The position numbers were made by a program, and so were the translations under genes. Below are positions 619-6,447 of a stretch of 6,447 nt of DNA, one piece after another. This stretch comes from a virus (lineage: Duplodnaviria > Heunggongvirae > Uroviricota > Caudoviricetes), in the IMG/VR virus record IMGVR_UViG_2690316121_000004, positions 1 through 6,447 of that record; one strand, written 5' to 3'. How positions within the stretch are numbered: the stretch's first letter is position 1; the number at the start of each line of letters is the position of its first letter. A model generated the notes under the pieces. That model ran no database searches. It was not told the DNA's origin and was given only the letters and a program-made list of their open reading frames with translations.

Positions 619-1068
619 TTACTTAACCAATGATGCTGCATATTCGATAAGGTAAAGCTTTGGGGCCAGCCAAATTTTTAACCAAGTCATATTGGTTACT
701 ACAGCAATAATAAAACTTACCCACAGAACAAAAACTGCTGCTAATGGTAAGATTAGAAAACTAATCTCACCGTTACTTTCCCAAATCATAGTCGGTTTGT
801 ATTTAGGCTTTCCCTTCTCCCATGCCCATCCTTCATCATCGAACTTACCAATTTCAACTTTTTGGTACTGTTTCTTCATAAACCAGAAAACCAACGGGAT
901 TGTTAAAATGGCTATTAATGTTTTAATCAGACTGTCAACCATATTCCATAGCAGCAACTGATGAACAACATCAGGAATCTGTGCCTGGCTAAATGAGACA
1001 GCCGCGTCTATTCCATTACTGGCTTTTTGCAATAGTTCTACGAGAATCTTGTTTGCTTGTTCTTCCAT
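619..1068 (-). CDS. Hypothetical 149-aa membrane protein with two predicted transmembrane helices; accessory (moron) gene inserted between ea10 and ral
   Basis: Intact ORF with ATG at 1068 preceded by AAGGTGA. Two long hydrophobic segments (LIKTLIAILTIPLVFWFM and ISFLILPLAAVFVLWVSFIIAVV). Has its own terminator and is flanked by 16-bp direct repeats. Looks AT-rich by eye. No homolog recognised. Confidence 0.7.
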   Translation of the reverse strand: MEEQANKILVELLQKASNGIDAAVSFSQAQIPDVVHQLLLWNMVDSLIKTLIAILTIPLVFWFMKKQYQKVEIGKFDDEGWAWEKGKPKYKPTMIWESNGEISFLILPLAAVFVLWVSFIIAVVTNMTWLKIWLAPKLYLIEYAASLVK

Positions 1069-1352: not shown

Positions 1353-1736
1353 TCATCTTGCTGTCAGTTGTTTGGATTTCCGGTAGCCTGCCGCGTAAAG
1401 AGCTACATTTGGAAGACATACACCAGTTTCTGGTTGCTTATGTCCAAACTCATTCGCGTACACAATGGCCGCTCGCTCCAGATTGCGTCTGTATTCTTCC
1501 TGCTGCCAGATCACGTCCTGTGCCATGAACTTAATTGGCTTAGCGTCTTCTATGCGCTTAGGCGTTTCGTGAGTACCTTTAGCCTGAATCTGCGCTCTGC
1601 TTAGAGTAGGGCGGCGTAATACTTCTGAACTTATTGCTTCTTCGCAGGCCAGTACGCCGTTAGCTAATGCCTTTGCCTTTAAACGCTCACGACGACGAGA
1701 ACGTGAATTGCCTTTGAACTGAGTTCTGCGTGTCAT
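1353..1736 (-). CDS. N: N-family transcription antiterminator of the P22 gene 24 type (127 aa)
   Basis: Start ATG at 1736 with AGGAGG 6 nt upstream. Arginine-rich motif near the N-terminus (FKGNSRSRRRERLKAKA). C-terminus LPNVALYAAGYRKSKQLTAR closely resembles the P22 gp24 C-terminus. First gene downstream of pL and nutL. Confidence 0.8.
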   Translation of the reverse strand: MTRRTQFKGNSRSRRRERLKAKALANGVLACEEAISSEVLRRPTLSRAQIQAKGTHETPKRIEDAKPIKFMAQDVIWQQEEYRRNLERAAIVYANEFGHKQPETGVCLPNVALYAAGYRKSKQLTAR

Positions 1737-1865: not shown

Positions 1866-1880
1866 GCGCTTTGTCAGCGC
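1866..1880 (-). promoter_or_regulatory. nutL boxB RNA hairpin (P22 type)
   Basis: The transcribed (minus) strand reads GCGCTGACAAAGCGC: a 4-bp GC stem with loop TGACAAA, identical to the P22 boxB-left as I recall it. It lies in the pL leader upstream of N. No convincing boxA was found. Confidence 0.7.
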
Positions 1881-2157: not shown

Positions 2158-2185
2158 GCAAAGAAAACCCGGCGCTGAGGCCGGG
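2158..2185 (-). terminator. Rho-independent terminator ending the cI-operon transcript (lambda timm equivalent)
   Basis: On the minus strand, stem CCCGGC / GCCGGG with a 6-nt loop is followed by TTTTCTTTG. It starts 7 nt after the stop of the 332-aa ORF. Confidence 0.7.
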
Positions 2186-2192
2186 ATGAGGA

Positions 2193-3191
2193 TTATGTTA
2201 TCTCTTTGACATAAAGTATTATCGCGGACTTTATTTCACCATCTAGTTCTTTTGCGTTGATTGACAAATGAACTGGTTTTCTATCCCACTCAGCTTGCTG
2301 AAGAGCTTTTTTATGCTCGGATGCGTCGAGAAAAACATCTTGTACTATGCACGATATTCTTAGATCGGAGTCAACATTTCTCACTTGCACTTTGAAGCTC
2401 TCTGGATCAGTGGAGTCAACCTTTTCAATGCGATAATTTCCATCAAGGCGGATCTCCATTGATTTCCGCCTTGCATTTGTAGTGAGGGTTTTGGATAGAT
2501 CTGCATCCAATACAACGCCATCAATCTGAGCTGTATCAGCCTTGACAAATGATTTAACTATGTCGGTTTTTGCGTCATGAGCAAGTCTTTCCATGTTGTC
2601 TAGCTTGGGTTTTTCGCTAATAATCTGAGTCAATAATTCACTTCGTTTTGTTTCCTGCTCAGACATGAAGCGCATGGTCGCAAGGTGTTCACGCTCAGAC
2701 TCGCTTTTTACTTCTGCCATGCGAATCTCTTTGCGGTCTTCTAGATATTTTTTGAATAGGACGACGCCGCCCCATATAAGAGCGACCCCTAAAACTGTAA
2801 TAACGATCTCTTGAGGGCCCACTTTACTCACCGCAGTTTGTATAACCTCACCCATGAACCCATCCATATTAACTTCTATCAAGGACGAGCCATTCTCAAC
2901 ATTCACCTGAATTTCGATAGCTTCCTTCTCTTCTTTTGAAAGCTTTCTTGGGTCAGGAACTCCGTACTTTAACAATGCATAAGCTCGGTTTATTTGGGCC
3001 TGCATTTCAACAAAACCCTTCATCACAGAAGGAGTCAAACTGCCATGAAATTTGTCACCAGTAAGACGGAAGGTTAAGTTAGGCCACCCTTCAAATGATA
3101 TTCCATCAGGAAGATCTTGCCCAGCGATGTACATCTCAACAAAACGCAAAGCATCTTCTTCGGAATGAATAACCGCCGTGCTGATTTCCAA
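2193..3191 (-). CDS. Hypothetical 332-aa single-pass membrane protein in the rexA-rexB slot; candidate phage exclusion / abortive-infection determinant
   Basis: Intact ORF directly downstream of cI on the same strand. The first in-frame start is TTG at 3191 with GAGG 7 nt upstream; the first ATG is at 3134 (residue 20) and has no Shine-Dalgarno. One strongly hydrophobic segment (IVITVLGVALIWGGVVLF, about residues 130-147) is followed by KKYLEDRKEIR and a long charged region. Not similar to RexA or RexB as I recall them. Confidence 0.8.
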   Translation of the reverse strand: MEISTAVIHSEEDALRFVEMYIAGQDLPDGISFEGWPNLTFRLTGDKFHGSLTPSVMKGFVEMQAQINRAYALLKYGVPDPRKLSKEEKEAIEIQVNVENGSSLIEVNMDGFMGEVIQTAVSKVGPQEIVITVLGVALIWGGVVLFKKYLEDRKEIRMAEVKSESEREHLATMRFMSEQETKRSELLTQIISEKPKLDNMERLAHDAKTDIVKSFVKADTAQIDGVVLDADLSKTLTTNARRKSMEIRLDGNYRIEKVDSTDPESFKVQVRNVDSDLRISCIVQDVFLDASEHKKALQQAEWDRKPVHLSINAKELDGEIKSAIILYVKEIT

Positions 3192-3261
3192 GACTAAACC
3201 TCTATAATTATTAATAATTTCAAATGATTGCTGTTTTTATTAGGAGACATTTAGCCCTTCA

Positions 3262-3978
<717 letters not shown>

Positions 3979-3981
3979 TTA

Positions 3982-4010
3982 AATCTATCACCGCAAGGGA
4001 TAAACATCTA
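3982..4010 (-). promoter_or_regulatory. pRM promoter (-10 TAGATT at 3982..3987, -35 TAGATG at 4005..4010, minus strand)
   Basis: Lambda pRM architecture overlapping OR3 and OR2. The -35 reads TAGATG where lambda has TAGATA. Confidence 0.75.
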
Positions 4011-4049
4011 ACACCGTGCGTGTTGACTATTTTACCTCTAGCGGTGATA
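3986..4049. promoter_or_regulatory. OR operators: OR3 3986..4002, OR2 4009..4025, OR1 4033..4049
   Basis: TATCACCGCAAGGGATA, TAACACCGTGCGTGTTG, TACCTCTAGCGGTGATA. Lambda-type tripartite operator between divergent cI and cro. Confidence 0.9.
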
Positions 4050-4051
4050 AT
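4022..4051 (+). promoter_or_regulatory. pR promoter (-35 TTGACT at 4022..4027, -10 GATAAT at 4046..4051)
   Basis: Canonical lambda pR hexamers with 18-bp spacing. The cro Shine-Dalgarno (TAAGGAGG) and ATG follow. Confidence 0.85.
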
Positions 4052-4075
4052 GATTACCTGTACTAAGGAGGTTGT

Positions 4076-4276
4076 ATGGAACAACGCATAACCCTGAAAG
4101 ATTATGCAATACGCTTTGGGCAAACCAAGACGGCTAAAGATCTCGGTGTATATCAAAGCGCGATTAACAAGGCCATTCATGCAGGCCGAAAGATTTTTTT
4201 AACTATAAACGCTGATGGAAGCGTTTATGCGGAAGAAATAAAGCCCTTCCCAAGTAACAAAAAAACAACTGCATAA
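4076..4276 (+). CDS. cro: Cro repressor, lambda type (66 aa)
   Basis: Matches lambda Cro over all 66 residues except about 2 conservative changes (M12I, V55I from memory). Strong Shine-Dalgarno upstream. Confidence 0.95.
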
Positions 4277-4314
4277 GTAACACCGCTATTTTCACAATGG
4301 ACATTCGTCCTACG

Positions 4315-4329
4315 TCGCTGACAAAGCGA
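4315..4329 (+). promoter_or_regulatory. nutR boxB hairpin (TCGCTGACAAAGCGA), with a possible boxA-like CGCTATTTT at 4284..4292
   Basis: 4-bp stem with loop TGACAAA, the same loop as nutL boxB, located just downstream of cro. The boxA call is weak: one or two mismatches to CGCTCTTTA and a longer spacer than in lambda. Confidence 0.6.
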
Positions 4330-4403
4330 GTCCCAATATATCTGACCAACTAAGGCCATATGCGTTTCCACGCATACCTTTCAACTAACTATTCACTATT
4401 GGA

Positions 4404-4437
4404 AATCTTAAGAAATGGAACAAACAAATTACAGCAA
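4404..4437 (-). promoter_or_regulatory. pRE-like CII-dependent promoter (TTGC-N6-TTGT site at 4424..4437, -10 AAGATT at 4404..4409, minus strand)
   Basis: On the minus strand: TTGCTGTAATTTGT, then 14 nt, then AAGATT. This mirrors lambda pRE (TTGC-N6-TTGC, 13 nt, AAGTAT) and overlaps the cII start codon as in lambda. Confidence 0.5.
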
Positions 4438-4711
4438 ACTATCACAGCGCGACGTTGATCGCGCAGAAACAGATTTACTTATCAACCTGTCAACGCTTAC
4501 TCAGCGCGGTCTGGCAAAGATGATTGGCTGTCATGAATCGAAGATAAGCAGAACAGACTGGAGGTTTATAGCTTCGGTCTTGTGTGCTTTTGGCATGGCA
4601 TCAGACATCAGTCCGATTAGCAGAGCTTTTAAGTATGCGCTTGATGAAATCACCAATAAAAAACGCCCGGCGGCAACCGAGCGTTCTGAACAAATCCAGA
4701 TGGAATTCTGA
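4415..4711 (+). CDS. cII: CII transcriptional activator, chimeric (98 aa)
   Basis: The C-terminal 19 residues (TNKKRPAATERSEQIQMEF) are identical to lambda CII. The N-terminal 79 residues are divergent but alignable, including the helix-turn-helix region. Confidence 0.85.
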   Translation: MEQTNYSKLSQRDVDRAETDLLINLSTLTQRGLAKMIGCHESKISRTDWRFIASVLCAFGMASDISPISRAFKYALDEITNKKRPAATERSEQIQMEF

Positions 4712-4734
4712 GGTCATTACTGGATCTATCAACA
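4655..4734 (-). ncRNA. oop: oop antisense RNA with its intrinsic terminator
   Basis: The minus strand reads GTTGATAGATCCAGTAATGACCTCAGAATTCCATCTGGATTTGTTCAGAACGCTCGGTTGCCGCCGGGCGTTTTTTATT, matching lambda oop as recalled. A promoter-like pair lies upstream on the minus strand (-10 CATAAT near 4741..4746, -35 TTGAGT near 4764..4769). Confidence 0.8.
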
Positions 4735-4743
4735 GGAGTCATT

Positions 4744-5642
4744 ATGACAAATACAGCAAAAATACTCAACTTCGGCAGAGGTAACTTTGCCGGACAGGAG
4801 CGTAATGTGGCAGATCTCGATGATGGTTACGCCAGACTATCAAATATGCTGCTTGAGGCTTATTCAGGCGCAGATCTGACCAAGCGACAGTTTAAAGTGC
4901 TGCTTGCCATTCTGCGTAAAACCTATGGGTGGAATAAACCAATGGACAGAATCACCGATTCTCAACTTAGTGAGATTACAAAGTTACCTGTCAAACGGTG
5001 CAATGAAGCCAAGTTAGAACTCGTCAGAATGAATATTATCAAGCAGCAAGGCGGCATGTTTGGACCAAATAAAAACATCTCAGAATGGTGTATCCCTCAA
5101 AACGAGGGAAAATCCCCTAAAACGAGGGATAAAACATCCCTCAAATTGGGGGATTGCTATCCCTCAAAACAGGGGGACACAAAAGACACTATTACAAAAG
5201 AAAAAAGAAAAGATTATTCGTCCGAGAATTCTGGCGAATCCTCTGACCAGCCAGAAAACGATCTTTCTGTGGTTAAACCGGATGCTGCAATTCAGAGCGG
5301 CAGCAAGTGGGGGACAGCAGAAGACCTGACCGCCGCAGAGTGGATGTTTGACATGGTGAAGACCATCCGCCATCAGCCAGAAAACCGAATTTTGCTGGGT
5401 GGGCTAACGATATCCGCCTGATGCGTGAACGTGACGGACGTAACCACCGAGACATGTGTGTACTGTTCCGCTGGGCATGCCAGGACAACTTCTGGTCCGG
5501 TAACGTGCTGAGTCCGGCCAAACTCCGCGACAAGTGGACCCAGCTCGAAATCAACCGAAACAAGCAACAGGCTGGCGTGACAGCCGGCAAACCAAAACTC
5601 GACCTGACGAACACTGACTGGATTTACGGGGTGGAGCTATGA
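4744..5642 (+). pseudogene. O: O replication initiator, frameshifted (N-terminal 225 codons in one frame, C-terminal 73 codons in another)
   Basis: The ORF 4744..5421 matches the lambda O N-terminal domain; the ORF ending at 5642 matches the lambda O C-terminus and overlaps the P start (ATGA) as in lambda. The span is 899 nt, not a multiple of 3. The frames switch at about 5364..5372 (ATCCGCCATCAGCC here; lambda has ATCGCACCATCAGCC as recalled). Confidence 0.85.
5092..5216. other. ori-lambda: four iterons (about 5092..5111, 5112..5131, 5134..5156, 5159..5178) plus an AT-rich unwinding region (5179..5216)
   Basis: Four repeats of ATCCCTCAAAACGAGGGA-like sequence, followed by CACAAAAGACACTATTACAAAAGAAAAAAGAAAAGATTATTCG, inside the O coding region. 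Confidence 0.9.
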
Positions 5643-6340
5643 AAAACATCGCCGCACAGATGGTTAACTTTGACTGTGAGCAGATGCGCCGGATCGCCAA
5701 CAACATGCCGGAACAGTACGACGAAAAGCCGCAGGTACAGCAGGTAGCGCAGATCATCAACGGTGTGTTCAGCCAGTTACTGGCAACTTTCCCGGCGAGT
5801 CTGGCTAACCGTGACCAGAACGAACTGAACGAAATCCGCCGCCAGTGGGTTCTGGCTTTCCGGGAAAACGGGATCACCACAATGGAACAGGTTAACGCAG
5901 GAATGCGCGTAGCCCGTCGGCAGAATCGACCATTTCTGCCATCACCCGGGCAGTTTGTTGCATGGTGCCGGGAAGAAGCATCCGTTATCGCCGGACTGCC
6001 AAACGTCAGCGAGCTGGTTGATATGGTTTACGAGTATTGCCGGAAGCGTGGTCTGTATCCAGATGCAGAGTCTTATCCGTGGAAATCAAACGCGCACTAC
6101 TGGCTGGTTACCAACCTGTATCAGAACATGCGGGCCAATGCGCTTACTGATGCGGAATTACGCCGTAAGGCCGCAGATGAGCTTGTCCATATGACTGCGA
6201 GAATTAACCGTGGTGAGGCGATCCCTGAACCAGTAAAACAACTTCCTGTCATGGGCGGTAGACCTCTAAATCGTGCACAGGCTCTGGCGAAGATCGCAGA
6301 AATCAAAGCTAAGTTCGGACTGAAAGGAGCAAGTGTATGA
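5639..6340 (+). CDS. P: P replication protein (DnaB helicase loader), lambda type (233 aa)
   Basis: Full-length, near-identical to lambda P. The start overlaps the O stop. Confidence 0.95.
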   Translation: MKNIAAQMVNFDCEQMRRIANNMPEQYDEKPQVQQVAQIINGVFSQLLATFPASLANRDQNELNEIRRQWVLAFRENGITTMEQVNAGMRVARRQNRPFLPSPGQFVAWCREEASVIAGLPNVSELVDMVYEYCRKRGLYPDAESYPWKSNAHYWLVTNLYQNMRANALTDAELRRKAADELVHMTARINRGEAIPEPVKQLPVMGGRPLNRAQALAKIAEIKAKFGLKGASV

Positions 6341-6447
6341 CGGGCAAAGAGGCAATTATTCATTACCTGGGGACGCATAATAGCTTCTGTGCGCCGGACG
6401 TTGCCGCGTTAACAGGCGCAACAGTAACCAGCATAAATCAGGCCGCG
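6338..6447 (+). CDS. ren: ren (Rex-exclusion resistance), 5' end only; runs off the window
   Basis: Translation MTGKEAIIHYLGTHNSFCAPDVAALTGATVTSINQAA matches the lambda Ren N-terminus. The ATG overlaps the P stop. Confidence 0.85.

Follow-up and report, generated by a model that had tools for sequence, protein, structure and literature searches.

The locus analyzed here raises the question of whether a CII activator, in which a DNA-binding portion clearly different from that of lambda CII is joined to a lambda-type C-terminus, has changed its DNA specificity together with the pRE site that overlaps the start of its gene and that differs from the lambda half-site by one base. The initial annotation of this DNA could be read as implying that it may have done so, and that the chimera is special to this prophage. 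We addressed this question in the window (i.e., the whole stretch of 6,447 nucleotides analyzed), which represents an early regulatory region from a lambdoid prophage. Its minus strand carries an Ea10/DUF2528 gene, a 149-aa ORF, N, a 332-aa gene in the rexAB position, and cI. Its plus strand carries cro (4076..4276), followed by nutR (4284-4329), cII (4415..4711), O (from 4744), P and the first part of ren. A blastn comparison against lambda identified three lambda-like blocks, i.e., 1910-2185 (oL/pL, 92% identity), 3261-4290 (cI-oR-cro, 95.3%) and 4650 to the end of the window (98.1%), and found no lambda similarity within 4291-4649; compared in 30-nt bins, this latter stretch matches P27 at 30/30 positions and 933W at 26-30/30 positions. 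The features on which the argument depends are as follows.

4415..4711, plus strand: cII, an intact ORF of 98 codons and a stop, encoding a transcriptional activator of the Phage_CII family
4291..4649, plus strand: block of the Stx-phage (933W/P27) type without lambda similarity, comprising nutR, the cro-cII spacer, the pRE core and cII codons 1-78
4284..4329, plus strand: nutR of the 933W type, with a boxA-like sequence CGCTATTTT (4284-4292) and a boxB hairpin TCGCTGACAAAGCGA (4315-4329), matching the nutR annotated in 933W (L082, 4508-4553)
3262..3975, minus strand: ORF for the lambda-type cI repressor, within the block 3261-4290 that is 95.3% identical to lambda at the nucleotide level; the gene expected to be targeted first by pRE transcription
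2193..3191, minus strand: 332-aa gene in the rexAB position, between cI and the terminator, expected to be co-transcribed with cI
2168-2185, minus strand: lambda-type terminator after the 332-aa gene, found by a terminator scan

The nutR stretch of the window is identical to that of 933W. Moreover, the N gene (1353..1736 (-)) is 96% identical to 933W N, and the boxB hairpins of both nutL (GCGCTGACAAAGCGC, 1866-1880 (-)) and nutR are of the type that matches a 933W-like N. As N and both boxB hairpins are of the 933W type, the block that extends from nutR through the pRE core to cII codon 78 travels with N/nut specificity. Between nutL and nutR, cI, cro, oL and oR are of the lambda type, and the region represents a naturally occurring 'imm-lambda' hybrid whose antitermination system is of the 933W type. 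In a sister prophage in NZ_CP148323, which is 99.5% identical over the whole window and 100% identical over the cII segment, N is represented in the pipeline annotation only by a fragment labelled as a pseudogene. The 149-aa ORF (619..1068 (-)) between Ea10 and N shows hydrophobic segments and is located near the position of sieB in lambda, where sieB lies on the opposite strand; it matches PHROG 3054, for which that resource gives the function as unknown (E = 1.5e-61), and showed no Pfam or PADLOC match.

The CII protein of the window scored 116.1 bits against PF05269 (Phage_CII; cut-off 21.3 bits; E = 8.6e-34), with residues 1-92 aligned to profile positions 1-91, and also matched PHROG 191 ('CII-like transcriptional activator'; E = 9.8e-39) and, in a phmmer search, lambda CII (PDB 1XWR; E = 8e-10). 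As the N-terminal 79 aa by themselves matched PF05269 with 92.7 bits (E = 1.7e-26), we conclude that the divergent part is a homologous CII DNA-binding domain and not a foreign one, and a non-homologous replacement of this domain was rejected. Profile score, HTH, gene position, pRE site, C-terminal tail and oop overlap all place the protein in the PF05269 family. Compared to lambda CII (PDB 1XWR, 1ZPQ, 8IGR), with which it shares the Pfam family, the gene position and the pRE register, the N-terminal 79 residues were indeed clearly different, as initially described; a BLASTP alignment contained 38/88 identities, 19 of which were the last 19 residues, and before the tail approx. 19/69 (28%) were identical (aligned residues 16-79), with gaps of 2 and 3 residues around the HTH and helix 4. 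The recognition helix ESKISRTDW nevertheless aligns with KSQISRWKRDW of lambda, with the core S-x-I-S-R and D-W kept, and G38, S45, R46, D48 and W49 were invariant in an alignment of 18 diverse homologues including lambda. An AF2 monomer model based on an 18-sequence alignment was too poor to confirm the fold (pLDDT 60.1, pTM 0.31). A terminator-like hairpin (AGACTGGAGGTTTATAGCTTCGGTCT) was also noted inside cII on the sense strand (4555-4580 (+)); it is followed by a T-poor tail and matches the consensus weakly.

Database comparisons indicated that this cII is an already known and very common allele. An identical protein (100%) is encoded by the Stx phage P27 (vB_EcoS_P27), by phi345 (vB_EcoP_phi345) and by Escherichia phage 2B8. 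A megablast search with 4277-4711 matched 319 phage records, including P27, phi345 and others at 99.8% and 933W at 94%, and 4283-4711 was 98.4% identical to phage 2B8 at the nucleotide level. Among 5,426 complete E. coli genomes, 1,027 contained matches to 4291-4711 with at least 80% coverage, with 104 records showing at least 99% identity. P27, phi345 and 2B8 agree with the window in the pRE site TTGCTGTAATTTGT, in the type of tail (lambda) and in oop-O-P-ren further downstream; immunity, on the other hand, differs, with 933W-type cI/cro in P27, another type in 2B8, and lambda-type cI/cro in the window. Phage 933W (and H-19B, according to the 933W annotation) has a near-identical N-terminal domain, the same nutR and pRE region, and a TTGC-N6-TTGT site (TTGCTGTAACTTGT); the 933W GenBank record annotates the gene as cII 'similar to CII protein of bacteriophage H19B and HK022'. 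Identities of the CII protein were approx. 87% for HK022 and approx. 86% for HK97 (85.7-86.7% for the two), and 87% for lambda DE3 (imm21).

As initially read, the putative CII site of pRE in the window is TTGC-N6-TTGT. The promoter elements are as follows.

4424..4437, minus strand: candidate CII site of pRE, TTGCTGTAATTTGT, with the distal TTGC at 4434-4437, a 6-nt spacer and the proximal TTGT at 4424-4427, overlapping cII codons 4-8
4405..4410, minus strand: predicted pRE -10 hexamer TAAGAT, placed by register comparison with lambda AAGTAT, in a stretch partly conserved across loci

The site is located at +10 to +23 from the cII ATG, which is the same register as in lambda (TTGCGTTTGTTTGC) and as in the annotated C1 site of P22. 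From the positions of the lambda -10 hexamer (AAGTAT) and of the lambda start point, transcription in the window would by analogy be expected to start near 4398. The motif TTGC-N6-TTGY was found twice in the window as compared to 0.98 occurrences expected (49 of 200 shuffles reached 2), and eight times in the sister prophage region of NZ_CP148323 as compared to 6.45 expected. As these counts are not above chance, the argument for the pRE site rests on its position and register, which we compared across 183 related loci. The second TTGC-N6-TTGT of the window (TTGCTGTCAGTTGT, 1358-1371 (+)) is antisense to the 3' end of N; approx. one such match is expected per window, and on direct reading it is without a -10-like hexamer at the pRE spacing, and this candidate was rejected as a CII site since it probably represents a chance match.

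The survey comprised 183 loci with a cII of the HK022/Stx lineage plus lambda, P22 and epsilon34, and yielded 58 unique pRE-region sequences; the sample is biased, as it was drawn with two queries and the best 80 hits of each. In these 58 sequences, neither the distal TTGC nor the first three bases of the proximal half-site (TTG) varied, even though the encoded residues differ from those of lambda; the spacer does vary, and the fourth base of the proximal half-site (C or T) was the only variable one of the eight half-site bases. This base tracked codon 4 of cII among the survey loci, with T occurring with ACA (Thr) and C with GCA (Ala). At HTH residues 25-52, one and the same string, LSTLTQRGLAKMIGCHESKISRTDWRFI, was found in 79 loci with TTGT and in 67 with TTGC; this N-terminal type is thus found with the standard TTGC-N6-TTGC as well as with TTGC-N6-TTGT, a finding that the initial annotation had named beforehand as one that would refute its proposal. 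HK022 and HK97, which share the HTH segment and the register with the window, carry TTGT and TTGC, respectively, and residue 4 is the sole difference between their CII proteins.

Relatives with 48-80% identity, which represent at least seven genera (Tatumella, Yersinia, Pectobacterium, Pantoea, Mixta, Edwardsiella, Symbiopectobacterium, and others), all showed TTGC-N6-TTGC. As the distant relatives all carry this form, TTGC is probably ancestral and TTGT a derived single-base variant. The start of the cII homologue of Mixta mediterraneensis contains three TTGC repeats at 10-bp phasing (TTGCgttggtTTGCtgtagtTTGC) instead of two. TTGT is found independently in P22 as well, where the site annotated as bound by C1 for PRE activation, at +10 to +23 of c1, is TTGCGAGTGCTTGT (TTGC-N6-TTGT), and it is present in epsilon34. 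P22 C1 differs from the window protein in that its N-terminal domain is lambda-like and not HK022-like, with a recognition helix almost identical to that of lambda. The CII consensus of Ho et al. (1992), as quoted in a passage of PMC10345575, is TTGC-N6-TTGC/T. Overall, as judged from these comparisons, the TTGT half-site is a common natural variant that reflects the presence of G (Ala) or A (Thr) in codon 4, and there is no sign of a new DNA specificity. The gene very probably represents the standard cII of the HK022/HK97/H-19B/933W lambdoid lineage, in its P27/2B8 allele, with ordinary function and with TTGT as a common variant.

One alternative, which is compatible with this explanation, is that TTGT acts quantitatively, i.e., that it changes (lowers or otherwise alters) the affinity of CII for pRE and shifts the lysis-lysogeny set-point and the establishment expression of cI and the 332-aa gene, with recognition specificity remaining the same. 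The confinement of variation to this one base of eight, the fixation of TTGT across a large subclade comprising Stx phages and HK022 along with its presence in P22 and epsilon34 (which indicates that it is tolerated and recurrent), and the simultaneous switch of residue 4 between Ala and Thr would all be consistent with such an effect. However, a neutral change would recur equally, and HK022 and HK97, which differ by this base alone in cII, are both functional temperate phages; we regard quantitative tuning as unlikely. The literature searched contained no DNA-binding experiment on this cII allele. It is distinctly improbable, in our view, that the C/T polymorphism, which also switches residue 4, has been selected as a tuning knob for the response of pRE to CII. 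If this were the case, the C/T base would set the frequency of lysogenization and the establishment expression of cI-linked cargo such as the 332-aa gene, and such selection would account for the fixation of TTGT among P22-like phages and within the Stx-phage/HK022 subclade.

A divergent DNA-binding portion with a changed specificity that co-evolved with TTGT, which is the reading suggested initially, is hardly tenable. It could draw on the low identity of the N-terminal 79 residues to lambda CII (approx. 28%) and on a proximal half-site that is one base off that of lambda, but the recognition residues did not co-vary with the half-site, given that the HTH segment is identical between the 79 TTGT and 67 TTGC loci and that HK022 and HK97 CII differ at residue 4 only. 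Moreover, the recognition-helix core S-x-I-S-R and D-W is shared with lambda, S45, R46, D48 and W49 are invariant, the distant relatives have TTGC-N6-TTGC, and P22 C1, with a recognition helix nearly that of lambda, uses TTGT at PRE.

The other CII-dependent promoters also argue against a changed specificity. As the pI and paQ positions lie outside the window, they were examined in the sister prophage of NZ_CP148323, where the initial annotation would have led one to look for TTGC-N6-TTGT. Instead, the canonical TTGC-N6-TTGC was found at both, i.e., as TTGCGAGTAATTGC at the pI position, just upstream of xis and aligned with lambda pI, and as TTGCGAGCACTTGC at the paQ position, antisense inside Q and identical to lambda paQ. 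Assuming that these promoters are in use, a phage with this cII would rely on canonical sites for expression of int and anti-Q, which argues for an unchanged CII specificity. Within positions 1-24 kb of 933W, no pI-like or paQ-like TTGY-N6-TTGY other than pRE was found near xis or in Q. As 933W is without recognizable pI and paQ sites, the argument from canonical sites rests on the sister prophage and not on the Stx phages. Lambda and the sister prophage also have in common a fourth perfect TTGC-N6-TTGC (TTGCTGAGGTTTGC), located within exo on the strand read leftward (4832-4845 (-) in L085 and 18350-18363 (-) in L084); we know of no CII-dependent promoter described at this place, and the site may represent a chance match preserved by conservation of the gene.

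The C-terminal end of the protein and the adjoining replication region contain the following features.

4652..4708, plus strand: lambda-identical CII tail (codons 80-98), TNKKRPAATERSEQIQMEF, 19/19 residues compared to lambda
4657..4733, minus strand: equivalent of the oop antisense RNA, 76/77 compared to lambda complement(38599..38675), overlapping the last 55 nt of cII
4660-4687, minus strand: oop terminator hairpin, found by a terminator scan
4741..4769, minus strand: predicted pO promoter for oop, TTGAGT-17-CATAAT with an upstream TG, found by a promoter scan in a region identical to lambda

The identity of the last 19 residues to lambda was thus borne out, with a single synonymous difference in the tail codons at 4700 (GAA; GAG in lambda). 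The C-terminal tail of CII reportedly plays a role in proteolysis by FtsH. Residues 82-98 are predicted to be disordered (AF2 pLDDT <50). For lambda CII, the tail has been described as the recognition and degradation signal for FtsH (PMC4651098). The oop equivalent folds into two hairpins (-28.5 kcal/mol, z = -4.66); Rfam is without a family for oop or nut and returned chance-level matches only. Lambda identity resumes at 4650 by blastn, with the identical run beginning at approx. 4648 in a pairwise alignment. As the terminator occupies 4660-4687, the junction lies approx. 10 nt beyond it, and its placement at the oop terminator in the initial annotation therefore held.

Downstream of the junction, the sequence had been described as lambda-identical, which is correct as near-identity but not as exact identity, as 98.1% of positions agree over 4650-6447 and the O gene is frameshifted by a 1-nt deletion. 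This deletion is located at approx. 5368 (window 5340-5440) as compared to lambda, P27 and the NZ_CP148323 prophage (ATC-CGCC as compared to ATCGCGCC) and splits O into a 225-aa ORF (4744..5421) and a 73-aa ORF (5421..5642). The frameshift reflects either a replication-defective prophage or a sequencing error; as it suggests that the prophage may be defective, cII may then no longer be under selection here.

The chimera is not special to this prophage. Positions 4269-6446 are collinear with P27 (95.7%) and 933W (94.4%), and the window matches P27 at 30/30 positions per 30-nt bin across the junction; as the window is unbroken compared to P27 at this point, the fusion of a lambda-type tail to an N-terminal domain of the HK022 type is old and shared. 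A recent recombination between lambda and an Stx phage, unique to this prophage, is the least credible reading of the junction, since, even though lambda-type cI/cro adjoin 933W-type nutR/cII and the DNA is 98% lambda-like from 4650, P27, 2B8, phi345 and more than 100 E. coli records with at least 99% identity already contain the cII-tail junction, and the window follows P27 unbroken over 4269-6446. As judged from these alignments, the recombination that distinguishes this prophage is located at the cro/nutR boundary (4269-4290), where lambda-type cI/cro meets 933W-type nutR, and not in cII.

Comparison of tails supported this interpretation of a standard allele with a shared junction. The same N-terminal domain was found paired with tails of the lambda type, the 21 type (KKRPVCKTERSEQIQMEF), the HK97 type (KKSPAATEDFKQIDMQF) and the 933W type (KKSPVAAGDSKQIDMQF), and a short P22-like tail is present in other genera. 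Each tail type is associated with its own oop terminator sequence, and all fold into the two-hairpin oop shape (z of about -4.6 to -5.2). For example, the tail of 933W CII is TKKKSPVAAGDSKQIDMQF and not of the lambda type, with a correspondingly different oop terminator sequence. HK022 and HK97 CII end in ...KKSPAATEDFKQIDMQF, unlike the window protein, and are followed by replication genes similar to P22 gene 18 and not by lambda O. P22 C1 carries a tail (TKEKPQDCGNSFEA) unrelated to that of lambda, with oop promoter and terminator annotated as lambda-like. The cII of DE3 (lambda imm21 hybrid) resembles that of the window in arrangement, as a lambda-like tail follows an N-terminal domain of the HK022 type, with the junction at the same place, and as the gene adjoins lambda O; its tail, however, is a variant with a 1-residue insertion (KKRPVCKTERSEQIQMEF), and its pRE site is TTGC-tgtagc-TTGC with Ala4. 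Epsilon34 gp48 represents the reverse case, in which a different N-terminal domain is combined with a lambda-like tail, along with TTGT.

The combination of a lambda-like tail and a variant repeat is already in print for a close relative, as Veses-Garcia et al. (2015, PMC4651098) state for phi24B, which carries a close allele, both that the TTGC-N6-TTGC repeat shows a single nucleotide change and that the CII carboxyl terminus, unlike that of 933W, shares the lambda FtsH-targeting sequence. PMC4651098 also places the variant repeat 'in the same locations', which was not reproduced for 933W.

These data suggest that the last 19 codons of cII physically belong to an oop-O-P replication module, which would be exchanged among lambdoid phages as a unit, with these codons inside it, while the block of nutR, pRE and cII codons 1-78 would move with N/nut specificity. 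As the last 19 codons appear to belong to that module, CII would become 'chimeric' whenever the module is exchanged.

By analogy with lambda and P22, from which binding, activation, proteolysis and antisense control are drawn, the mode of action of CII of the window is most likely that of lambda CII. Following infection, CII translated from the pR transcript would bind, within the first codons of its own gene, the TTGC-N6-TTG(C/T) repeat that flanks the pRE -35 region. The leftward transcription activated in this way would pass through cro in antisense orientation, enter cI and the 332-aa gene, and extend to the terminator at 2168-2185. Two controls would set the level of CII, namely FtsH proteolysis via the C-terminal tail and the oop antisense RNA that overlaps the last 55 nt of cII. 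It is plausible that pRE transcription runs through cI into the 332-aa gene, and a terminator scan found no strong terminator between 3262 and 3191 (-), i.e., from cI to the 332-aa gene. The 332-aa protein contains a hydrophobic stretch (IVITVLGVALIWGGVVLF); it matched PHROG 6191, which is listed there as of unknown function (E = 1e-137), and showed no PADLOC match and no Pfam match above the cut-off.

The gene can thus be named cII (Stx-phage/HK022 type) with confidence, and pRE, oop and pO can be placed by homology, which has little importance beyond annotation. Expression of the 332-aa gene in the establishment phase should follow ordinary CII/pRE control, with no need for a rewired specificity. 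The locus represents a clean textbook example of a lambdoid module boundary located inside a gene, where the end of cII overlaps the oop transcription unit.
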